A stretch of DNA of 64,000 bases from Spirochaetota bacterium. GTDB lineage: Bacteria; Spirochaetota; JAHITG01; JAFGFC01. The translations under genes were made by a program, and so were the position numbers. Below the pieces are notes generated by a model that ran no database searches, was not told the DNA's origin, and was given only the letters and a program-made list of their open reading frames with translations. Below, in pieces: positions 7,858 to 55,317 of this stretch; position 1 is the first letter of the stretch; every line of letters begins with the position of its first letter. The stretch is from assembly GCA_016931325.1 (NCBI GenBank), contig JAFGFC010000051.1, positions 12,639 through 76,638 of the forward strand. The letters run 5' to 3'.

Positions 7858-8925
7858 TTATTGTGCCTTTAATTTCCTCTCCATTTTCTTGATCCTGTTC
7901 AGCATCGCCAGCGCTTCTTTGCCGTATTTGGAGTTTTTATCAAGTTCGATCACCTTGTAAAGCATCTCCTTGGAATCCTCTATCCTCTGCTGGGCATAGT
8001 AGAACTTGGCTTTTTCAAGATAAAATTTCTGATCTTTCAATATATCTTTCTTCGACATGACCTTTTCTTCATCATCTCCCTCCATTATGGTTTCTTTCTC
8101 CTTTTCTCCTTTTTCTGAACTGTAGAAAAGGTTAGGAAAGCGATGGTAATAGGAAAGAATGAGAAGCGTGAATCTTTTCTTCTCTTTATCCCACCGGGAT
8201 GAAAGATAGATATTTTCAAGATCGTAATTAAAATTATACCCCAGCCCGGGTACAAGATATTCTTTCTGCAAGCCGGCCAGCATATAAAGGCCTTTGATAA
8301 GATTTATGTCAAAGGACAAGGAGTAATCCGTTATATCAGACATATCCTTTGGTAATAAAAGACCGGTCAAAAATTTTATATCATCAGTAACTTTAAGGGT
8401 AGATCCCATGTTTATCGTCATGGGCAAAAGATTATGATCTGTGGCATTTTTCAGGCTGGCTCCCAGGTCCCACCATTTTAAAATCCTTAACAGGAATCCC
8501 ATGTCAAAATCGCTGAATTTTATTTTTTTACCGTCCTTGTCTATGATCACATATTTATAGGACAGGCCATATTTAAGAAAACGGATCAATGTTCCCCCTA
8601 TCCCGATTAAAAACTGTTCATAATGATCTTTCTTTTCCATGCCCAGCCCTATATTAAGGGACGTCCAGTAGTATTGGCTTAAGCATGGAAATCGTGTCAG
8701 ATAGTAACCCATATAAAATGATGAAAAAGTAAATTTCTCGGAAGTGGATAAGGCTATCTGGCCCAATGATTTGGATAGATTGAAAAGTGTGGCCGGGTTG
8801 TAAGAAAGCCCTGATATATCTTCACCCAGAGTCACAGATCCATATTTATGGACCTCATTCCTCGCTGAAAAACCCAACAGGGTGTTGATCATCAGCATGA
8901 ATAAGATAAAAACTCTTTTAACCAT
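7858..8925 (-). CDS. FadL/PorV-like outer-membrane barrel with a short C-terminal TPR-like tail
   Basis: Signal peptide present. SVTLGEDISGLSYNPATLFNL motif. The C-terminal EKAKFYYAQQRIEDSKEMLYKVIELDKNSKYGKEA is TPR-like. Its start overlaps the stop of the upstream GGDEF gene by 8 nt. Confidence 0.5.
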   Translation of the reverse strand: MVKRVFILFMLMINTLLGFSARNEVHKYGSVTLGEDISGLSYNPATLFNLSKSLGQIALSTSEKFTFSSFYMGYYLTRFPCLSQYYWTSLNIGLGMEKKDHYEQFLIGIGGTLIRFLKYGLSYKYVIIDKDGKKIKFSDFDMGFLLRILKWWDLGASLKNATDHNLLPMTINMGSTLKVTDDIKFLTGLLLPKDMSDITDYSLSFDINLIKGLYMLAGLQKEYLVPGLGYNFNYDLENIYLSSRWDKEKKRFTLLILSYYHRFPNLFYSSEKGEKEKETIMEGDDEEKVMSKKDILKDQKFYLEKAKFYYAQQRIEDSKEMLYKVIELDKNSKYGKEALAMLNRIKKMERKLKAQ

Positions 8926-10780
8926 ACGTAACCTGGTTCCTTCCTTTCTCCTTAGATTGATATAAGGCTTTATCTGCTCTTTCGATCAACTTTTTAGAAT
9001 CAATTGATGAATCCATGGACGAAGATACCCCTATGGAAATAGTCACCTTTAATTTTTTACCTCTGGATGTGGTAACCGTCATCTGCTGGACCTCTTTTCG
9101 GATCCTTTCGGCTGTATGCAAGGCATTTTCTTTATCGGTATCCGGCAAAAGAATGCCAAATTCTTCGCCGCCATAACGTCCGGCTATGTCATTTCTCACC
9201 CTGTTCTGGCGAATATGGGCCAGGATCACACCGGCCACTCTGGCCAGGACCAGATCCCCTACTTGATGGCCATAGGTGTCATTGAATTGTTTGAAATGAT
9301 CAATATCGGTCATTAACAATGATGTGGATCTTTTTTCCTTTCCGGCATTGGCCAGTTCGCTCTTTAACGTGCCCATAAAATACCGCCTTGCCATCAGTTT
9401 GGTCAGCTGATCCTCTGTGGCCTCTTTATACAATTTTTCATATTTCGATAATTCCTGTGTCAGCTGGTCTGCCAGATGATTGAAGGTATGGGCAAATTTA
9501 CCGAACTCGTCTGTCCTTTTCATCTTGATCCTGAATTTAAGGTCTTTCAATATCTCATCCGCCCCTTTATCCAGTTTATGGATGGGATAAACAATATAAA
9601 AGGCAAGGGCCAGCCCGGCTATAATACTGAATAAAAGGATCGTGGTTGAAGAAAAAATGCCCTGCATGAGAATAGGCGCTATTTTATGGCGTATGGCATC
9701 GTCCGATATGCCGATCTCATAATACCCCACCGTATTGTTGGCCCAGGTGATCTTTCTGAACATCCTGATAATATCAACATTATCATGAACGGGGAAGGCG
9801 CGGGCCTTGAAAAACAGCTTGGCTTCATAAAACTGTTTCAGGTCCTCATCAATCCTTTCAAGATTTTTCATGATATGGTTGATATTCTTCTTTACCTTGA
9901 ATATCAGATTTTGAAAGGGATATATTTCCTGGATGTTCCTCAAAGGCCTGGAAACATTTTTATTCTTTTCAAGGATATTGTCCATCCTTTTCATGCTTTC
10001 ATGCAATGACAGGTTGATCCTGTTAAGTGTTTTGATCCTTCTGTCCTGACTGCGTGATGACAGGTCAGAGTAGATGATGCTCAGCTTTTTTTCGTAGACC
10101 GGAGAACGTTCTTTTACCAGTTCCCGTAATTTATTAATCTGACGGACCTGTTCCGGGAGCAGCCTGTTGGCGTAATGAAAAAGAGCCCTCGCCTGCTTTA
10201 TCCTCTCTTTAATATTCTTAATCTGACCCATGATCTGGTTGGATGAAATGATCTGGTTGTTGATGCTGATAAATCGGTTAAAGTTGCTGTTGATAGAATA
10301 GAACTCCCTCATGTCCCTTTCATATTCTTCTCTGTAATCGTTCACCACATAATATTTTTCATTGACCGTGTCCACTTTTTCAAAGGCTTTTGAGCTCTTC
10401 CTTTTTATGACTCTTTTTCTGGTTTCCACCTCGTTGCGGGTTATTTCCAGTTCTCTTTTCCCCATGTCAAGCAGCACAAGATTCTTTTTATAGATGTACT
10501 CCGCGCGGTTAATAACATCAAGCACCTTAAGATAGATCAGCTCTTCATTGACATCAAACACCTTCAGGAGGATGACATTTAAATTCTCCAGGCCGGCATT
10601 ATTTAAAAGCTGCTCGGCGATGATATTGTTGTTGTTCTCCAGATTCTGGCTTATCCGGTGTATGATCTCGCTCTTTAACCTTGGTTTATACTGGGTATTG
10701 GAAAGATAAAGGATCGTGATACTCAGACTGAGCACGAGGAGGATAGTAAGGAATATAATAACCGTATATTTTATACTCAT
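8918..10780 (-). CDS. Membrane-anchored diguanylate cyclase (GGDEF) with a large coiled-coil-rich periplasmic region and a HAMP-like linker
   Basis: Two transmembrane segments. C-terminal GGDEF domain (DIDHFKQFNDTYGHQVGDLVL...RYGGEEFGILLPDT...KALYQSKEKGRNQV). Confidence 0.85.
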   Translation of the reverse strand: MSIKYTVIIFLTILLVLSLSITILYLSNTQYKPRLKSEIIHRISQNLENNNNIIAEQLLNNAGLENLNVILLKVFDVNEELIYLKVLDVINRAEYIYKKNLVLLDMGKRELEITRNEVETRKRVIKRKSSKAFEKVDTVNEKYYVVNDYREEYERDMREFYSINSNFNRFISINNQIISSNQIMGQIKNIKERIKQARALFHYANRLLPEQVRQINKLRELVKERSPVYEKKLSIIYSDLSSRSQDRRIKTLNRINLSLHESMKRMDNILEKNKNVSRPLRNIQEIYPFQNLIFKVKKNINHIMKNLERIDEDLKQFYEAKLFFKARAFPVHDNVDIIRMFRKITWANNTVGYYEIGISDDAIRHKIAPILMQGIFSSTTILLFSIIAGLALAFYIVYPIHKLDKGADEILKDLKFRIKMKRTDEFGKFAHTFNHLADQLTQELSKYEKLYKEATEDQLTKLMARRYFMGTLKSELANAGKEKRSTSLLMTDIDHFKQFNDTYGHQVGDLVLARVAGVILAHIRQNRVRNDIAGRYGGEEFGILLPDTDKENALHTAERIRKEVQQMTVTTSRGKKLKVTISIGVSSSMDSSIDSKKLIERADKALYQSKEKGRNQVTYG

Positions 10781-20984: not shown

Positions 20985-21043
20985 GATATTTACCTCCTTT
21001 CCCCTTTTCATTAGTAAGGACAATGGTCAGGGAAAAAAGTGCA

Positions 21044-21206
21044 AGAATTTTTTTTAATATTTGAGGATTCAGGCCGTGTGAAAATCAGCCCTCTGGAATT
21101 TCCAAGAGAAATTCCGAGGATAAAGTCCTGGAAATTTCTCTAGAAATTTCACAGGAAGATCTTCCAGGGAGATTCAAGGGGTCCAGGGTTCCTGGACCCC
21201 TTGAAT
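21044..21206. repeat. Structured intergenic repeat, family 1, copy 2; contains a perfect 16-bp-arm hairpin at 21172-21206
   Basis: Collinear sequence blocks with 447-578. attcaaggggtccagg-gtt-cctggaccccttgaat is a perfect inverted repeat. gaaatttct-ct-agaaatttc is also palindromic. Confidence 0.5.
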
Positions 21207-21339
21207 TCTTATTCGAAATAAAGATATCCGTGTTAATCCGCCATGGGGGCCTTTAGGCTCTGGTTACTCTTAAAAAACTTGACTTGGGGCCTTCGGGGCA
21301 ATATTTTAGAGTTTCAAGCCAAGGTATAGGGAGACAATC

Positions 21340-21765
21340 ATGGGTCATCATCATGAAAAGGAAACGGTGATACGGTTTGGTATCTCTATTGAAGAACATT
21401 TATTGGAATCATTCGACCGGTATTTGAAAAAAAAGCATTATAAGAACCGGTCAGAAGCCATAAGGGATCTGATCCGCGACAGGCTTTCTGACGCAAAGAA
21501 AGAATCAGGGGAAGAGAAGACGGTGGCCATTGTCTCGTACCTCTATAACCATCATATTCCCCAGCTAACGGAAAAGATCGTCCATATGCACCATCATTCT
21601 CACATCAAGATCTACTCCACACAGCATATTCATCTTTCCAGGGAATTGTGCCTTGAGATCACGATCGTGGAAGGGGAAATGGCCAGGGTGAAAGATTTCA
21701 GCAACAGGATACAGTCGCTAAAAGGGGTTCAGCATTTGACCGTCAATCACTACTTCTTGACCTAA
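21340..21765 (+). CDS. nikR: Nickel-responsive transcriptional regulator NikR
   Basis: N-terminal RHH (RFGISIEEHLLESFDRYLKKKHYKNRSEAIRDLIRDRL) and C-terminal His-rich metal-binding domain (HMHHHSH...), typical NikR architecture and length (141 aa). Confidence 0.85.
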   Translation: MGHHHEKETVIRFGISIEEHLLESFDRYLKKKHYKNRSEAIRDLIRDRLSDAKKESGEEKTVAIVSYLYNHHIPQLTEKIVHMHHHSHIKIYSTQHIHLSRELCLEITIVEGEMARVKDFSNRIQSLKGVQHLTVNHYFLT

Positions 21766-32947: not shown

Positions 32948-33595
32948 TTAATTGATTTTATTTTTTGTTGCGCTTACCCTTCCTACTGTATCAATCATCT
33001 CATCCTGATTGGTGTAGTAAATCTCATCAATATAGAATGTCACTGTGCCTGAATTATCGCTGGCTTTTACCAGGACCGAGAATCCACCGGCCATATCCTC
33101 AAACTTGTTGTTTAATTCGAGTTCGTATTTCTTCCACTCTTTTGAGAGTTCAATTCTTTTAGAGATCTTTGCCTGCTGCCCTTTCAGAGGGGCCATTCTG
33201 AATTCAACAACTTCATCACCTTTGTTACCTCTGGCATAGAAATAAATCTTTTTGGCTGTAGAGAGGTCATATCCGCCTCTTATCGATGTCCAGTGGTTAT
33301 AAGGATTCTGCGCAAAATTCAATGAAGCCCATTTTGCTCCGACTGTTTCAGCGCTGTATTCGATCTTCATACAGCTTGTTCCTTTCTTGGGATTGATCGT
33401 CCATTTGTGGTCGATCTTCAGATCCCTGAAATCTCCTGCCCACCCGCTGGGTATACAATTATTAATACGGCTCGTACCGTCTTTGTAGACCTGGAAGGGG
33501 TAACGCAGAACCTTAAAGCATTTTAAATGTTCAGTATAAAGATTGAGAACCATTAACCCGACGATCAAAATGACAACAACCATTAACTTTTTCAT
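32948..33595 (-). CDS. Secreted paralog-family protein D
   Basis: KVLRYPFQVYKDG...PSGWAGD...YFYARGNKGDEVVEF...LSKEWKKYELEL...FYIDEIYY; about 45-50% identical to paralog C by eye. Confidence 0.55.
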   Translation of the reverse strand: MKKLMVVVILIVGLMVLNLYTEHLKCFKVLRYPFQVYKDGTSRINNCIPSGWAGDFRDLKIDHKWTINPKKGTSCMKIEYSAETVGAKWASLNFAQNPYNHWTSIRGGYDLSTAKKIYFYARGNKGDEVVEFRMAPLKGQQAKISKRIELSKEWKKYELELNNKFEDMAGGFSVLVKASDNSGTVTFYIDEIYYTNQDEMIDTVGRVSATKNKIN

Positions 33596-33675
33596 GGCTT
33601 TTTACCTCCTTTTCCCTTTTCATTAGTAAGGACAATGAAAAGATAAAAAAGTGCAAGAATTTTTTAGAAAAAATC

Positions 33676-33837
33676 AACCACTGAAGGCTCTGAAAACAGA
33701 GCGAAGCCTGCCCGAAGGGTGGAGCAAAGCCTCCCGTAGGGACTGAAAATTCATATTATAATTTGAAAAAATATGAAATCTGCTGTTACTTGAAAATCTT
33801 ATTAATCTCTGTGAATTCAGTGAAGATCAGTGGTTTT
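33676..33837. repeat. MITE-like repeat, family 2 (termini aaccactgaa ... cagtggtt)
   Basis: Terminal inverted repeats plus internal ctcccgtagggactgaa and gtgaattcag blocks, shared with 58237-58283 and 63371-63480. Confidence 0.45.
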
Positions 33838-33854
33838 CCGAAGTTCTCTGTGGT

Positions 33855-36800
33855 TCAGGTCTGGACGCAGTTGCGGCCTTTTTCTTTGGCCTTATACAGG
33901 GCTTTATCAGAACGGACAACCAGTTCCTGCCATTCTTCGCCCGGTTCCAGCTCGGCCACTCCAATGGAAGCGGTGATCCTGAGCTGAATATCTTTCTTCC
34001 CCATTCGATAAGAGACCCTGTTGCTTTCAATGATCTTGCGAAGTTTTTCAGCCAGTATTTTAGCCCCATCCAGTCCTGTTTCAGGGATAATAACAGCGAA
34101 TTCCTCTCCCCCGTATCGGGCAGCCGAATCGCTTTTTCTGATATTCTTCTTTATTATCAGAGCTATCTTCTTCAGGACCAGATCCCCGGCCCTATGGCCG
34201 TATTTATCGTTAAAATTCTTAAAATGATCGATATCAAGCATAAGCAGGCTTAACTTGTTCTTATACCGTGTAGCCAGTTCCACGCTTTTCGATAGAAAAT
34301 TTTCAAAAAAATTATGTGTATAAAGTTCTGTCAGGCCGTCGGTTATGGCTTTTTTATAGAGAATGGCATTCTCAATAGAAATCCCGGCCTGACGTGAAAT
34401 AACTTCCAGGACCCTCAGATCTTCTTCTGTAAATACTCCGCTCACCAGCCGATTATCCAGATAGATCACACCCAGCATCTCTTCCCGGCCCATAATAGGC
34501 AGGCTGAGAGCCGACTTTATCCCGAACCGCACAATACTGGCTTCATCCTTAAAATCTTTGTCCAGGGTAGCATCATCCACGATCAAAGGCTTTTTTCCCT
34601 GTTCGACTCTGTTAATGATACCACTGGATGTATGGAACAACTCCCCTTCCAGTTCCACATCTTTTACGTTCTTGGCTACTTTGACTTCCAGAATTTTATC
34701 CTTTTTTTCTTCCACGGGATATAAAAGCAGAATACCGCGTTCCGCCCCCACCAGCTGGATCGCCTTTTCAATAATCTTCTCCAGCAGTTCCTCAAGGTCC
34801 AGAATACTGGAAAAATAACGGCTGGTTTCCAGGACCGTGGTCATTTCCCGCTCGATCTGCAAACGTTCTTTGGGGCTCTCTTTGGCTACCTGCACTTTGA
34901 GATCCAACCCCAGCACGGAGGCGCACCTTTTTATGTATTCCCTGGACCCGATCTCCTGAAAGACCTTAAAAGCCTGCTGCCAGTAGTGATGGGCGCTTTC
35001 GATCTTATTTCCAGCTTCATAAAAGTAGCCCATTTCAAAAAGCGTCTTGCCCAGCTCGAATTTTCTGCCTAATTTCCTGGCCAGTTCCATACTTTTAAAA
35101 AATAAAATTTCCGCTTTTTTTCTTTTATTAATTAAGATATGATATTTGGCATACGACCGCAACGCGGACATATAATGAGTGACCCAGGGGGCGGCCTTTT
35201 TCAAAGCGTCACGGCAAAGGGAACGGATCAGTTTTAAATGGCCTCTGTCCTTCTTTTTCTTCTTTTTGTAATTTTCTATATGAGCATCAGCCAGAACAAA
35301 GTAGAGATTGGCCGTATAATTTTTTAAAAAATCATGGGTTTCATTAATTTCCCTGGCCAGCTGGGCGTACTTGATGGCATCCGCATAATTTCCTTTTTCA
35401 TAAGATAAAATAGACATGCCGATATGCATCCCCAGCAGCGGAAACGGTAATTTTTTAGCCTGGACAATGGAATATCCTCTCCTTAAAGCTTTTTCGGCGG
35501 TATCAATCTCTCCCTGTTCCAGATAGACTTCGATCAGATAACCTAAACAGCTGGTAATGCCAAAGTCATCTTTAATCTCCTCGCTGATCTTTAAATATTC
35601 AAGCAAATGGCCGACCGCTTCTCTGAAGTCACCGGAATAAAGATAATCAATTCCAATCCCCTGAAGCGTCATGCCCAGATTCCAGATATCCTCCACCAGC
35701 CTGTATTTTTCAGCGGCCTGACCCAGATAATCCCGGCTTTTAGCATATTCGCCTTTAAATTGATAGTAATAACCGATGAATTGAAGTGACTGCGCCAGTT
35801 CCCGCTCGTCACCCAGTTCCCTTCGAATTTCCAGAGCCTTAAAATGATATTTTTCAGCTCCCTTGAACATGGGAATTGACATAAGGAGCGAAGCGTAGGC
35901 CCCGATACTGGCGGCCAGCTCTTTTGAACGACCAAGCCTTGATTGAGCGATATGTAATCCTCGAAGGACAGAATGAATAAACTTGCTGATATCCGTCAGG
36001 ATATACATCCAGTCCAGGCTATGATGTGTCACAATGATCGTTATATCCTGGGGATCCTTATGCTTGACCTGTTTTTTTAAATAATAGCGGTTTAAAAAAG
36101 AATGAAAGAAATGCACCGCGGCTTCTCTTACCAGGGCCATCATGACCTCGCTTTTCCTGCGAGGCACTTTCTCGCCTAAAAGAGACAAGCCCCTGGCAAT
36201 GACCTCTTCTGACTCCACCCAGCTGCCCATGTTCAAGTGAGCCTGACCCATATGGATATACAACTTGGCTTTTTCAAATGGGTTCCTCTTTAAAGGAAGG
36301 ATCTCTTTACACAGGTTGATCACTTCATTGGACTTGCCGGCGCTCAGATAGACTTCGATCAACCCTTCTTTTGCCTGCATCCATCTCTTATCCTTTGTTT
36401 TCTCCTTCTCCAGAATGTTCAGCACAATATTATAATATCGTATGGCTTCCTCATTGGCATAATTCTCTTTAGCCCTGTCAGCGGCCCTGATCCCGTATTG
36501 AAGCGATCTGTGTTTATCTCCCCCTTCAATAAAATGATGCGCCAGGTCAAAAATAACCTCTTCGATATTCTGTTTATTTCTTTCTTCCAGGGCCGTCCCG
36601 ATCATAAGATGATATTTTACCCTCTCTTTTTTTGTCATCCGGGCATAAAAAGCGTCCCTGACGCGATCGTGTACGAACATCAACGCGCCTTTTCTGGAAC
36701 TTTTTTCTAAGAGTTGTTTTTCTATTGTAGAATCGATCAGATGAACCAGAATATCCCTGCTCTCTTTCATCAGATCCTGTATCATATCGATCTGAAATTC

Positions 36801-38900
36801 CCTCCCGATAACAGAACTGATGGATAACAATTTCGCCTCTTTTTCCGGAAGGTCCTTGATCCGTAAAAGGAGCATATCCACAATATTTGAACTGACAGGC
36901 AATTTATTGATCTTGGACCAGTTCTCTTTCCAGGACCCTTCTTCCCAGATAAGGGCTTTTCTTTCTACCAGCTCTCTCAATATCGTAATGGCAAAAAAGG
37001 GATTCCCTTTTGTTTTATCAATAAGATAACGGGCAATTTTATCAGCCTTGGATTCACGCTCCCCGAGGACCTCGGCAGCGAGCCTTCGCATACGGCCAAA
37101 ATTAAAATGGCTCAGCTTGATCTCCTCCAGGGGATAATGCATGGCCTTGGACTCTTTTTTTATCCTGTGAATACTATGATCCCGGCCGATCTCATCATCC
37201 CTGTAGGTAGCCAGAAGAAAAAGATTGTTCGTTCTTGACTTTCTTAAAAGCTCTTCTATGAGGCTTAAACTTCCCTCATCAGCCCACTGTATATCATCAA
37301 TGAAAAGAACAACATTCTGCTTCCTGCCGGACAGGGAGGTCAAGAACTTGACATATTCCATTAGATATCTCTTGTTCTCTTTTTCCGGGTCATCAAGCGG
37401 CGTGATCTCGCTCACCTGGCCCAGAATTTCGCTCATATTGGAATTGAATTTCAAAATGATCCCGGTCAGATCCCCGAATATCTTCTTTAACCGTTTCCCT
37501 TCCTGTTTTTTTAACTCCTGGCCTTCCCGTTTTATCCTCCGGATATAATCATCGGTAATATCTTTGAACGGGTGGAACGGCATCTTGTTTTCCTGATTAA
37601 AACACCGTCCCATAAAAAACATGCCTCCCTGCTCGTAGACATAACCCCTTAATTCCTCAACCAGCCGGCTTTTCCCGATACCGGCTTCTCCGGCAATAAA
37701 ACAGAGGCTTCCGGAATGAGCTTTGGCTTTATCATAAAGTTCTTTAAGATCATTGAATTCTTTAGCCCGCCCCACCAGCCTGGACCTGTAAGTCAGCTTT
37801 TTTTTCTGATCCATCTCCCCGATAACGAATGTCTTTTCCCCTTTTTCGAACCGGGCGATATCATGCAAGAATCCTATGGCACTCTGATAACGGATCTCCG
37901 GTTCTTTATCCAGAAGCTTCATGATCATATCTTCCAGGGCTTTTGGTATATTGACATTAACCTTACCGGGTCTGACAGGAATAGCCGCTACCTGCTTGTG
38001 CAGGATCTGGCTTATCTCTTTTCCCACAAAGGGCATCTCCCCTGTTAAAAGTCGGTAAAAGATTATTCCCAGAGAATAAAGGTCACTTCTCTCATCCACC
38101 GGTTTGTTGATAATCCCTGTGGCTTCCGGAGACATATAACCAAACGTTCCTATTATCTCGGCCATTTCTTTGATCTGCCTCAGTTCCATCACGTGGGCCA
38201 GGCCAAAGTCCAAAATCTTTATCTTTTTTGCCTGATCAATGATCACGTTACCCGGCTTGAGGTCGCGGTGCAGGATATTACGGCTGTGAACATAATCAAG
38301 GGCCTCGGTTATCTGTTTTATGATCCTGACCGATTCCTTTATGGTGAATCTTTTTCCTTTCAGTAAAAGATCATAAAGGCTGTCTCCCTTCAACAATTCC
38401 ATCACGATATAGGGGATATTATCATACTCGCCCAAGCCAAATATTTTAACAATACCGGGATGATTAAATTTGGAGACGATCTCGACTTCTTTTTTAAATC
38501 TGATCTTATCCTCCAAAAAAGAAGAGATCCTGTTCTTTTTAAGGAATTTTATAGCCACTTCCTTTTTGGCCTTGTTATCAAAAGCTCTGTAGACAGAGGC
38601 CATTCCCCCTTCACCCAGTTTCGCTTTGATCTTATACTGTCCACTTATGATTGTTGATGATTTCAGTTCCAAGAACTCTCCCCTGACCTTTACCTCGTCT
38701 GTATTAGTATCGCCTAAAATGATTCTCTTCTTAAGGAGCAAAAGGTTATTTTCAATTATACTAAATAAATTACCAAGGGCAAGCAATTTCTGGCCACCAA
38801 TGCAAGAGAAACCACCCTTAGGAATCGCTATGCGATTCCTAAGGGTGGTTTCTCTTGTAAAAGTTAATTGACTTTGGCATTTTTTACCTGTATATTTCAT
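33855..38900 (-). CDS. Multidomain signalling protein: Ser/Thr kinase – STAND (AAA_16) NTPase – TPR repeats – GAF – GGDEF
   Basis: Kinase motifs (LGEGGMASVY, AIK, HRDLKPGNVII, DFGLA, SPE). P-loop GEAGIGKSRLVEEL. Long TPR-like region. GAF domain (VGAERGILLLY...GVIYLDNR). GGDEF domain (RYGGEEFAVIIPETG, KALYKAKEKGRNCV). The N-terminal 100 aa and the exact start are uncertain. Confidence 0.8.
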   Translation of the reverse strand: MKYTGKKCQSQLTFTRETTLRNRIAIPKGGFSCIGGQKLLALGNLFSIIENNLLLLKKRIILGDTNTDEVKVRGEFLELKSSTIISGQYKIKAKLGEGGMASVYRAFDNKAKKEVAIKFLKKNRISSFLEDKIRFKKEVEIVSKFNHPGIVKIFGLGEYDNIPYIVMELLKGDSLYDLLLKGKRFTIKESVRIIKQITEALDYVHSRNILHRDLKPGNVIIDQAKKIKILDFGLAHVMELRQIKEMAEIIGTFGYMSPEATGIINKPVDERSDLYSLGIIFYRLLTGEMPFVGKEISQILHKQVAAIPVRPGKVNVNIPKALEDMIMKLLDKEPEIRYQSAIGFLHDIARFEKGEKTFVIGEMDQKKKLTYRSRLVGRAKEFNDLKELYDKAKAHSGSLCFIAGEAGIGKSRLVEELRGYVYEQGGMFFMGRCFNQENKMPFHPFKDITDDYIRRIKREGQELKKQEGKRLKKIFGDLTGIILKFNSNMSEILGQVSEITPLDDPEKENKRYLMEYVKFLTSLSGRKQNVVLFIDDIQWADEGSLSLIEELLRKSRTNNLFLLATYRDDEIGRDHSIHRIKKESKAMHYPLEEIKLSHFNFGRMRRLAAEVLGERESKADKIARYLIDKTKGNPFFAITILRELVERKALIWEEGSWKENWSKINKLPVSSNIVDMLLLRIKDLPEKEAKLLSISSVIGREFQIDMIQDLMKESRDILVHLIDSTIEKQLLEKSSRKGALMFVHDRVRDAFYARMTKKERVKYHLMIGTALEERNKQNIEEVIFDLAHHFIEGGDKHRSLQYGIRAADRAKENYANEEAIRYYNIVLNILEKEKTKDKRWMQAKEGLIEVYLSAGKSNEVINLCKEILPLKRNPFEKAKLYIHMGQAHLNMGSWVESEEVIARGLSLLGEKVPRRKSEVMMALVREAAVHFFHSFLNRYYLKKQVKHKDPQDITIIVTHHSLDWMYILTDISKFIHSVLRGLHIAQSRLGRSKELAASIGAYASLLMSIPMFKGAEKYHFKALEIRRELGDERELAQSLQFIGYYYQFKGEYAKSRDYLGQAAEKYRLVEDIWNLGMTLQGIGIDYLYSGDFREAVGHLLEYLKISEEIKDDFGITSCLGYLIEVYLEQGEIDTAEKALRRGYSIVQAKKLPFPLLGMHIGMSILSYEKGNYADAIKYAQLAREINETHDFLKNYTANLYFVLADAHIENYKKKKKKDRGHLKLIRSLCRDALKKAAPWVTHYMSALRSYAKYHILINKRKKAEILFFKSMELARKLGRKFELGKTLFEMGYFYEAGNKIESAHHYWQQAFKVFQEIGSREYIKRCASVLGLDLKVQVAKESPKERLQIEREMTTVLETSRYFSSILDLEELLEKIIEKAIQLVGAERGILLLYPVEEKKDKILEVKVAKNVKDVELEGELFHTSSGIINRVEQGKKPLIVDDATLDKDFKDEASIVRFGIKSALSLPIMGREEMLGVIYLDNRLVSGVFTEEDLRVLEVISRQAGISIENAILYKKAITDGLTELYTHNFFENFLSKSVELATRYKNKLSLLMLDIDHFKNFNDKYGHRAGDLVLKKIALIIKKNIRKSDSAARYGGEEFAVIIPETGLDGAKILAEKLRKIIESNRVSYRMGKKDIQLRITASIGVAELEPGEEWQELVVRSDKALYKAKEKGRNCVQT
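38803..38857. repeat. Perfect 26-bp-arm inverted repeat with a 3-nt loop (caagagaaaccacccttaggaatcgc-tat-gcgattcctaagggtggtttctcttg)
   Basis: Read directly. Lies within the first ~100 nt of the annotated kinase ORF, 45-100 nt from the divergent gene at 38946. Confidence 0.7.
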
Positions 38901-38945
38901 CGCATATTACAGAAAGCACAGAAACAGAAAGCAGGGAGGTAAAAC

Positions 38946-39707
38946 ATGAAAAAGATCTCTATTTTATCCATTTTGATATCCTTATTTCTAGCCGCTGTCT
39001 TGATAGCAGGTGAGGTAGAGGACCTTGTTGAAAAAGGCAATACCGCCTTTGACAAATGGGATTACAGCAAGGCCATTGAATATTACAAAGAAGCCCTTAA
39101 AAAAGATGAAAAGAATTTTACCGCCTTATGGAAGACAGCTAATGCATATATCAATCTCGGCGTACTGGAACAGGAGGATGATGACAAAAAAGAATCCCTT
39201 TTTAATCAGGGATCTTTATTTGCTCAAAAGGCGGTCAAAGAACATCCTCAAAAAGCGGACGGCTATGCCATGCTCTCCATTGCGGAAGGCCGACTGGCTA
39301 TGTTCGCCGGTGGTAAAAGAAAGGTCGAATTATCCAAGAGTGTCAAAAAAAATGCGCAACTCGCTTTGAAATATGACCCTAACCATGACGGAGCCCTGCA
39401 TGTACTGGGGGCCTGGCATAGAGAAGTGGCCACACTAGGCGGATTTCTAAAATTCTTTGCCAAAGTCCTTTATGGCGGCTTGCCCGATGCAAATATGAAA
39501 GATTCCATAAAATATCTGGAAAAAGCTGTAAAAGTAAAACCATCTAATATCGAACACCATCTGGACCTGGCTAAAAGCTATATTGAAGAAGACATGGAAG
39601 ATAAAGCCAGAAAGGAGTTAAAACTGGCTATTGAACTTCCTCCCACAGAGGGTTATGATAAATTAAATAAAGCAGAAGCCAAAGAACTATTAGAAGATCT
39701 TGATTAA
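38946..39707 (+). CDS. Secreted TPR-like repeat protein
   Basis: Signal peptide present. Helical repeats (AIEYYKEALKKDEKN, ALWKTANAYINLG...). Confidence 0.45.
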   Translation: MKKISILSILISLFLAAVLIAGEVEDLVEKGNTAFDKWDYSKAIEYYKEALKKDEKNFTALWKTANAYINLGVLEQEDDDKKESLFNQGSLFAQKAVKEHPQKADGYAMLSIAEGRLAMFAGGKRKVELSKSVKKNAQLALKYDPNHDGALHVLGAWHREVATLGGFLKFFAKVLYGGLPDANMKDSIKYLEKAVKVKPSNIEHHLDLAKSYIEEDMEDKARKELKLAIELPPTEGYDKLNKAEAKELLEDLD

Positions 39708-39751
39708 AAAAAAGGGACGGTTCTTTCAACACAAAGAACCGTCCCTTTTTT

Positions 39752-40210
39752 TCACTGCACCCTTTTTATTATCTCTTTTGCAATTTCCCCAGCCCTTTTA
39801 AAATCTCTTTTATCAGGCCTTCCCTTGTTCAGCCCGCCAAAGACCCTGAATGGCCCGGCTGTATCCCAGCATTTAAAACTAAAATCATGAACCACTTTAA
39901 AATTTCGCGTCTTCAACTGCCTTCTCAGTACCCTGTGATAATACCACAGCGGACCTATTCCCCTGGTAGAAAAGATAAAAGCCTTTTTGTTTTTTACCTT
40001 TGGTACTTGGTCAACGAAATCGATCAGGTACTTGTGATGCTTCCAGTAATAGATGCCGGCACCGAATCCGATCAGATCATATTTTATAACATCCCGGGGT
40101 TTTATTTCTCTGTGATCAACCACCCTGGCCTTTAACACCTTGCCCATATACCTTGAGATCTTTTCTGTGTTCTTATGATGATAGGAAACATAGATAATAA
40201 GCGTCTTCAT
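39752..40210 (-). CDS. Flavodoxin-like protein
   Basis: MKTLIIYVSYHHKNTEKISRYMGKVL...YDLIGFGAGIY...AFIFSTRG matches the flavodoxin-fold FMN-binding pattern. Confidence 0.55.
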   Translation of the reverse strand: MKTLIIYVSYHHKNTEKISRYMGKVLKARVVDHREIKPRDVIKYDLIGFGAGIYYWKHHKYLIDFVDQVPKVKNKKAFIFSTRGIGPLWYYHRVLRRQLKTRNFKVVHDFSFKCWDTAGPFRVFGGLNKGRPDKRDFKRAGEIAKEIIKRVQ

Positions 40211-40232
40211 TTTTTGTCGCGCAGACATGCCC

Positions 40233-54599: not shown

Positions 54600-55280
54600 A
54601 TGGCAGGTTCAGGTTTTAATCTTAACAAGCTGATTGATGAATCCAAGCAGACTTTGCTGGCGCCAAAAGCGTATTTTTCTGCCATGGCAAAAACAGGTGG
54701 GCTGGTTGACCCCATTATCAAAGCGGTTGTCTATGGTCTGGTCGCCGGGATCATAACTCTCATCTTAGGATTAATAGGTATTGGAGCGGCTGGTGTGAGT
54801 ACAATCATAATGACTCCTATAATGGCTCTTATTGGGCTCTTTATTGGGGGTATCATTATTCTTATCATCTCCGCTATTTGTGGTGGCAGTACGGATTTTG
54901 AAGCGAATATAAGAGTGACCGCATCTATTTCAGTTCTACTACCCATTCAATCTCTTCTTATAGTTTTTAATTCCATTAATTTCTATTTAGGAGCGATAGT
55001 GGGATTAGCTGTTTCACTTTATGGATTGTGGCTACTTTATCTTGCTCTTACAAAATCTCTTTCAGCTAAAGACAATATTGCAAAAATAATCGTAGGTATT
55101 TTTGCAATTCTCTCCATCATACTAACTGTTCTTTCATTCGGTGCTACGAGAGTGGCCTCTCATTTATCGAATGAAGCAACACAAAATGCTGAAGAGATGC
55201 AGAAAAAAGCAGAACAAATGATGGAAAAATTCATGAAGGAAAACAAATCTTCAGAAGGATCATCTGAATCATCTGAATAA
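54600..55280 (+). CDS. Yip1-domain membrane protein
   Basis: N-terminal soluble segment, then 5 transmembrane helices and an acidic C-terminus. Topology is Yip1-like. Confidence 0.45.
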   Translation: MAGSGFNLNKLIDESKQTLLAPKAYFSAMAKTGGLVDPIIKAVVYGLVAGIITLILGLIGIGAAGVSTIIMTPIMALIGLFIGGIIILIISAICGGSTDFEANIRVTASISVLLPIQSLLIVFNSINFYLGAIVGLAVSLYGLWLLYLALTKSLSAKDNIAKIIVGIFAILSIILTVLSFGATRVASHLSNEATQNAEEMQKKAEQMMEKFMKENKSSEGSSESSE

Positions 55281-55317
55281 TATACAAAGCCCCTAATCCT
55301 AGGGGCTTTGTATATCC

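Follow-up and report, generated by a model that had tools for sequence, protein, structure and literature searches.

What is a flawless inverted repeat of 55 nucleotides (nt) doing at the head of a bacterial signalling gene, and is it to be read as protein, as RNA or as DNA? The question is raised by a stretch of 64,000 nt from the genome of an uncultured bacterium of the Spirochaetota (contig JAFGFC010000051.1 of assembly GCA_016931325.1, positions 12,639 to 76,638 of the forward strand), hereafter called the window, in which the repeat occupies positions 38803-38857, next to a large gene encoding a protein with kinase and GGDEF domains. The palindrome lies in the non-coding spacer between this gene and a divergently oriented gene encoding a TPR protein, and predicted promoters facing outward flank it on both sides. 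Our answer, which is tentative and to which we would give somewhat less than an even chance, is that it is a functional DNA-level cis element, either a symmetric binding site or a cruciform, common to both promoters.

A repeat search of the window recovered the palindrome exactly as it had been described in an earlier inspection of the letters, made without database searches (the sequence-only reading). The sequence is CAAGAGAAACCACCCTTAGGAATCGC-TAT-GCGATTCCTAAGGGTGGTTTCTCTTG, with two arms of 26 nt that are complementary at 26 of 26 positions (100%) and a loop of 3 nt. The same inspection had called such a repeat rarely accidental; at the base composition of the window, chance would indeed give only about 3e-10 perfect inverted repeats of 26 bp (loops of 0-10 nt) per 64 kb. 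It is the longest perfect inverted repeat of the window, the next ones having arms of 20, 16 and 16 bp, and arm pairing is lost sharply at both of its edges, where 38802 g stands opposite 38858 t and 38800-38798 are unpaired with 38860-38862. Its GC content is 47%, against 36% in the remaining spacer, and no compositional island surrounds it at the 200-nt scale. Folded as RNA, either strand gives a hairpin with a predicted free energy (dG) of -47.1 kcal/mol; for DNA the value is -30.9 kcal/mol.

Since chimeric reads can yield perfect palindromes, the repeat might have been produced during library preparation or assembly, as a fold-back chimera or as an adapter. The identical 55 nt with identical flanks are present in the Logan assembly of run SRR13394437 (contig L001), which matches the window, the spacer included, at all but 8 of 6,525 positions; these 8 lie within 37236-37473. 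Judged by this similarity, L001 represents the same population as the window in another consensus and from another assembler; because this separate assembly also carries the palindrome with the same flanks, the repeat is not a private error of one assembly. Moreover, each flank is unique and neither is an inverted copy of the other, and arms of 26 nt are shorter than typical assembly k-mers. Although both pipelines probably drew on the same population, an artefact is very unlikely and already largely refuted. As a separate observation, the 8 differences cluster in a 238-bp stretch (37236-37473) of the kinase coding region, a pattern that points to microdiversity among strains, to a recombination patch or to cross-assembly with a paralog.

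Whether the palindrome could be translated depends on where the kinase-GGDEF gene starts. The mechanical open reading frame (ORF; 33855..38900, minus strand) runs uninterrupted for 1681 amino acids (aa) from ATG 38900; read in this way, the palindrome would encode part of an N-terminal kinase extension. The homologs argue against this extension: none of 2,300 aligns to the first ~76 residues of the long ORF, they cover only ~95% of it, and the closest full-length orthologs measure 1607 and 1608 aa. An exhaustive phmmer search of 1.84 billion representative proteins with the 76-aa peptide, in one frame, yielded no credible relative; its two hits, P0184 and P0185, were discarded as tandem-repeat proteins matched by chance, the repeated 'PSGAFSCIG' of P0184 resembling 'PKGGFSCIG'. 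The most probable true start is TTG 38672, which has a good Shine-Dalgarno sequence (SD) ahead of it (Table 1) and gives the N-terminus MELKSSTIISGQY (MELKSSTIISGQYKIKAKLGEGG), in the same register and with the same MELK as three homologs whose N-termini read MELKFK...RY (P0007, P0009 and P0010). In general, homolog N-termini (MVLRAGEIINKRY, MEYRSGDIINRKY, MELKFKKNEIIDSRY and others) lie 12-17 residues ahead of the kinase Y/RY motif. Public gene models also begin past the palindrome, both in the Logan call and in the NCBI model of the identical protein (P0001, 1628 aa), which starts at TTG 38741, probably 69 nt (23 codons) too early.

The longest ORF is thus taken to over-extend the kinase-GGDEF gene by 76 codons. 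Because the start most probably lies downstream of the palindrome, the palindrome is intergenic; its translation, now scarcely credible, was rejected on homolog coverage, the peptide search and the start-codon evidence. The sequence-only reading had suspected a start downstream, and in this it was right, since homolog N-termini, the SD and an extension devoid of relatives all place the start past the palindrome. Its TTG at ~38689 has to be moved to 38672-38670, 5 nt downstream of the AGGGGAG that it had pointed out, and its remark that kinase homology is lacking until about residue 100 holds with a small correction, as the Pfam kinase domain begins at residue 89.

A consensus scan places one sigma70-like site with a 10/12 match on each side of the palindrome, and both sites face outward (Table 1). 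Sites with at least 10/12 matches number 39 in 128 kb (both strands combined), that is 0.30 per kb per strand, and the chance of finding a correctly oriented 10/12 site on both flanks is ~0.001, or ~0.005 at the rate of AT-rich stretches. From these predicted promoters, the transcription start sites (TSSs) would lie at ~38748 for the kinase gene and at ~38903 for the TPR gene; the palindrome would then span about -55 to -109 relative to the first and about -46 to -100 relative to the second, its centre (38830) lying ~82 bp upstream of the kinase TSS and ~73 bp upstream of the TPR TSS. The dyad falls within the promoter region, where an operator is expected, being 10 bp upstream of one predicted -35 box and 20 bp upstream of the other. 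Because both predicted promoters lie outside the palindrome and face outward, we infer that it is probably not transcribed. Farther out, the opposite coding regions contain weak 9/12 promoter-like sites from which transcription could run through the palindrome. A sigma54 promoter was considered and rejected: TGGCCAGAAATTGC at 38796-38783 (minus strand) has the form GG-N9-GC and not the GG-N10-GC of -24/-12 elements, lies only ~6 nt from the palindrome, and is probably a coincidence. As regards the TPR gene, the identical 253-aa protein is annotated in NCBI and in Logan, and it appears to begin with a signal peptide.

Table 1. Features of the spacer between the kinase-GGDEF and TPR genes, in window coordinates; promoters and gene starts are predictions
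Feature	Coordinates	Strand	Details
Non-coding spacer between divergent genes, 273 bp	38673..38945	.	Relatives have co-directional kinase, nitroreductase and TPR genes
Most probable kinase-GGDEF start	38670..38684	-	SD AGGGGAG 38684-38678, 5-nt spacer, TTG 38672-38670; product 1605 aa
Predicted sigma70-type kinase-GGDEF promoter	38755..38782	-	-35 TTGCCC 38782-38777, N16, -10 TATAAT 38760-38755; 10/12 consensus match
Left arm of palindrome	38803..38828	.	CAAGAGAAACCACCCTTAGGAATCGC; repeat search; single in window at <=3 mismatches
Central spacer of palindrome	38829..38831	.	TAT, 3 nt; symmetry centre 38830
Right arm of palindrome	38832..38857	.	GCGATTCCTAAGGGTGGTTTCTCTTG; exact reverse complement of left arm
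Predicted sigma70-type TPR promoter	38868..38896	+	-35 TTGACT 38868-38873, N17, -10 TATATT 38891-38896; 10/12 consensus match
TPR gene start	38934..38948	+	SD GGGAGG 38934-38939, ATG 38946-38948; 253-aa RMD1-3-like TPR protein

The two genes that share this spacer also keep company elsewhere. Their closest relatives are distant (kinase 61% identical, TPR protein 57%), and kinase and TPR (or flavodoxin) genes are neighbours in at least 4 such distant relatives. In loci L002 and L007/L008 a kinase, a nitroreductase and a TPR gene follow one another in the same direction, and in L007 only 25 and 38 nt separate them; the 808-aa gene of L007 is 61% identical to the window kinase. In L004 a flavodoxin_5 gene takes the third place, after kinase and nitroreductase. 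In the window the TPR gene stands head-to-head with the kinase gene, an ortholog of the flavodoxin (54% identity) lies behind the TPR gene, and no nitroreductase gene is present. The conserved neighbourhood suggests a functional link between kinase and TPR protein. Because the relatives have kinase, nitroreductase and TPR genes in the same direction, the head-to-head spacer with its palindrome is, from the comparison of gene orders, lineage-specific. The genome of the window would have lost the nitroreductase gene and its TPR and flavodoxin genes would have come to flank the kinase gene on its opposite side (window 32948-40228 compared with L002, L004, L007 and L008). A simple inversion, in which kinase and nitroreductase were flipped together, is not supported in this form, since the gene that follows the kinase (215 aa) bears no relation to the nitroreductase of the relatives and the window has none of its own.

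Two side observations concern the signalling context of these genes. In L009 and L011 the TPR homolog adjoins a gene for PilZ, a receptor of cyclic di-GMP (c-di-GMP), a hint that the TPR protein may belong to c-di-GMP signalling. A second diguanylate cyclase is encoded in the window (8918-10780, minus strand; HAMP-GGDEF, 620 aa); its GGDEF domain shares 44% identity with the one in the L007 kinase ortholog, and the source genome appears rich in c-di-GMP signalling genes.

In the reading that we favour, the palindrome would be an untranscribed, single-copy element in the joint upstream region of the divergent kinase-GGDEF and TPR promoters, both of sigma70 type, with its centre in the zone used by upstream activators and architectural proteins. 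A symmetric DNA-binding protein, dimeric or tetrameric, might occupy the dyad; alternatively, negative supercoiling between the diverging polymerases might extrude the 26-bp arms as a cruciform. By either route the activities of the two promoters would be coupled or damped. If kinase and TPR protein are indeed linked, this link could be kept in the window only through a shared control region, and shared control may replace the co-transcription of the two genes in the relatives. As the arms are flawless and the edges sharp, the element would be of recent origin, formed by a local inverted duplication (a replication template switch) within the lineage-new spacer. In favour of a functional element are a perfection far beyond chance, the location outside the coding region between outward promoter matches, the lack of a U-tract and of an Rfam family, and a GC content distinct from the surroundings. 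An operator between divergent genes, one of the roles that the sequence-only reading had proposed, is possible as far as position goes, and with perfect 26-bp arms, a 3-nt loop and the DNA hairpin energy reported above the repeat is also predicted to be competent for cruciform extrusion. A bolder form of this idea, which we regard as a long shot, holds that a supercoil-sensing cruciform switch or insulator arose de novo at the rearrangement junction and couples the promoters of a c-di-GMP module, putatively the kinase-AAA-TPR-GAF-GGDEF protein and its conserved TPR partner, in place of the ancestral co-transcription.

Several points weigh against a functional element. Classical operators measure 14-40 bp and are imperfect; 55 perfectly symmetric bp go far beyond the need of any single regulator, and a classical operator is unlikely. 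No DNA-binding regulator is encoded next to the palindrome; those that the window does encode (ECF sigma factor, NikR and a DtxR-type repressor) are all at least 9 kb away. No regulon is visible, as no sub-palindrome recurs in the window or in the orthologous loci, and no comparable inverted repeat stands upstream of the orthologs, whose loci are not syntenic. The surround of the loop, CGC-TAT-GCG, is not AT-rich, and a centre that is not AT-rich slows cruciform extrusion. Both promoters, finally, are consensus predictions only. On present evidence a functional element is indistinguishable from a selectively neutral young mutation, which is possible too and nearly as likely: a template switch (fold-back copying) may have duplicated 26 bp in inverted orientation, or perfected a quasi-palindrome, and the product would have no dedicated function and would decay or be deleted. 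Arms that match at 26 of 26 positions and end abruptly are the signature of a copying event and not of long-term selection; the palindrome is single-copy and absent from every collection searched; and the spacer is itself a recent, lineage-specific junction. Template-switch mutations are well known from both E. coli and yeast, where they create or perfect inverted repeats (PMC7202029, PMC8604942), and their products resemble the palindrome in perfect arms, short spacer, sharp edges and local origin, but they were seen to arise from a known imperfect ancestor and usually have shorter arms. The contrast in GC with the surrounding spacer speaks against neutrality, as does the neat placement between two -35 boxes, neither of which is disrupted, which would be convenient for a random event; moreover, the ancestral state is absent, the closest relatives being only 56-61% identical at the protein level.

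Two further explanations, a dispersed repeat and an RNA-level element, have less to recommend them. The palindrome might be a low-copy, genome-specific member of a dispersed family, similar to repetitive extragenic palindromes (REPs) and bacterial interspersed mosaic elements (BIMEs) or to a minimal miniature inverted-repeat transposable element (MITE), that landed between the promoters. Its 55 bp form a discrete, sharply bounded unit that differs from its flanks in composition and falls within the size range of REPs, and by our estimate a family of ~20-50 copies per genome would often leave no second copy in 64 kb. The searches for copies, which covered the 64-kb window and the overlapping contigs as the accessible part of the source genome, tell against it. 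In the window no second arm occurs when 3 mismatches are allowed, the next-best 26-mer having 7, and no arm sub-word of at least 10 nt recurs; sub-palindromes at the same spacing recur neither in the window nor in L002-L005; and no second copy of the palindrome is found in the window, L001 or L006. A gapped short-word BLAST of the window and the loci returned only chance 8-13-mers, the inner and outer 20-mers have no exact match in 185,579 species-representative genomes, JGI metagenomes and IMG/VR, and blastn against phages and plasmids gave only chance matches (E >= 2). No target-site duplication is present, since the flanks ...CCACCAATG and TAAAAGTTAA... share no direct repeat. Among the window genes no transposase, integrase, resolvase or Y1 transposase (RAYT) gene occurs; these genes are ordinary chromosomal ones, encoding MreBCD, PBP2/RodA, isocitrate dehydrogenase, trehalose-phosphate synthase/phosphatase, carotenoid enzymes, FeoAB and a TonB system, besides the three regulators named above. 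REPs, in addition, are usually imperfect and located at the 3' ends of genes. A dispersed repeat is on balance rather unlikely; the window and the public collections searched gave no further copy, and the remnant of a mobile element, which the sequence-only reading had also contemplated, found no support. Among defined elements, a MITE or insertion sequence remnant was rejected for want of a target-site duplication, of further copies in the data searched and of similarity to transposon ends in the blastn comparison with plasmids and phages. An integron attC site carries R and L boxes (GTTRRRY) and extrahelical bases, and the site of a telomere resolvase is an even-centred palindrome accompanied by the resolvase gene; the palindrome has perfect unbulged arms without GTTRRRY, an odd centre owing to its 3-nt spacer, and neither an integrase nor a resolvase gene in the window, and both were discarded.

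A role of the transcript is less likely still. As part of a small RNA, or of a long 5' leader on the kinase or TPR mRNA, so stable a hairpin could affect stability, processing or translation, and the hairpin energy on either strand, a spacer that folds far better than its shuffles (z = -5.8 and -7.8) and the weak outer promoter-like sites with their potential for read-through all agree with it. On the other side, the best promoters of both strands start downstream of the hairpin, and neither SD is occluded, since 131 nt separate the palindrome from the start codon of the kinase gene and 88 nt from that of the TPR gene. Past the stem no U-tract follows on either strand, the plus strand reading TAAAAGTTAA and the minus strand CATTGGTGGC. 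An intrinsic terminator was rejected on this ground, and also because the terminator scan did not call it and it sits between divergent 5' ends rather than 3' of a gene. Rfam gave no match at gathering score in the window; the best match in e-value mode was mir-5681, with 41.6 bits against a threshold of 88, and the sub-threshold matches of the palindrome were all generic miRNA hairpins. No tRNA or tmRNA gene is found in the window. Moreover, thermometers and riboswitches do not typically consist of a perfect, unbulged helix of 26 bp. A 5' leader hairpin or RNA thermometer, as the sequence-only reading had imagined, is therefore not favoured, since the best promoter-like sites lie downstream of the palindrome and face outward.

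If the palindrome is a shared DNA-level element, as we tentatively hold, it can be compared with known systems. The bioO operator of the E. coli bio operon and tetO are dyad-symmetric operators in bidirectional promoter regions and control both transcripts; shared palindromic operators of this sort are 15-40 bp long and imperfect, overlap -10/-35 elements and have a known repressor, whereas the palindrome is 55 bp long and perfect, lies upstream of both -35 boxes and has no known protein. REPs, BIMEs and minimal MITEs are likewise short (~20-65 nt) extragenic palindromes forming discrete units with a composition of their own, but they are multi-copy, imperfect, mostly at gene 3' ends and linked to a RAYT or transposase, while the palindrome is perfect, single-copy in the accessible data and placed between divergent 5' ends. 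A cruciform modulated by a regulator, HlyU, is documented in the intergenic promoter region of Vibrio parahaemolyticus exsBA (PMC10325908), where an inverted repeat acts at the DNA level and transcription is controlled by cruciform formation and by binding of protein in or close to the repeat. The exsBA repeat, shown experimentally, is AT-rich with short imperfect stems, long loops and a defined overlap with the HlyU site; the palindrome has 26-bp perfect arms, 47% GC and a 3-nt loop, and is known here from sequence alone. In bacteria, the stretches upstream of TSSs are enriched in perfect inverted repeats (PMC13155455). Inverted repeats with arms of at least 13 bp are scarce in E. coli, where most of those with arms of at least 8 bp are terminators (PMC6060812); a 26-bp repeat that is not a terminator is therefore unusual, although its class has precedent. 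The palindrome is thus an orphan of a known class, that of promoter-proximal perfect inverted repeats.

Other inverted repeats of the window are of different kinds. A perfect 20-bp hairpin with a 6-nt loop at 39707-39752, flanked by A8 and T7, sits exactly between the stops of the convergent TPR and flavodoxin_5 genes and has every feature of a textbook bidirectional intrinsic terminator; it shares with the palindrome a long perfect hairpin in a spacer but differs in its A8/T7 tails and its place at convergent 3' ends, the palindrome having neither U nor A tracts and lying between divergent 5' ends. The divergent spacer 21024-21339, upstream of a NikR-like gene (21340..21765, PF08753), is dense in inverted repeats, one at 21096-21150 with 25-nt arms that are 80% complementary, one at 21145-21174, and one at 21172-21206 that is perfect, with 16-bp arms and a 3-nt loop, ATTCAAGGGGTCCAGG-GTT-CCTGGACCCCTTGAAT. 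None of them resembles the palindrome at 38803 in sequence, and they could be operators, an unannotated small RNA or a terminator. Between the convergent genes for a Yip1-domain protein and AIR carboxylase (AIRC, PF00731), positions 55280-55315 form a perfect hairpin of 16 bp, ATATACAAAGCCCCTA-ATCC-TAGGGGCTTTGTATAT, which is probably a terminator, though without a clean T-run.

As a single orphan element of an uncultured organism, the palindrome opens no larger question at present and is a modest curiosity, not a new kind of element. The practical result is a correction of the annotation: TTG 38672 is the most likely start of the kinase-GGDEF gene, and the palindrome falls between genes. Beyond this, the locus would offer a clean natural test case for learning if divergent promoters tolerate a long perfect palindrome between them, and if such a palindrome is neutral or regulatory; the rebuilding of a bidirectional control region once an operon has been rearranged could be followed there as well.

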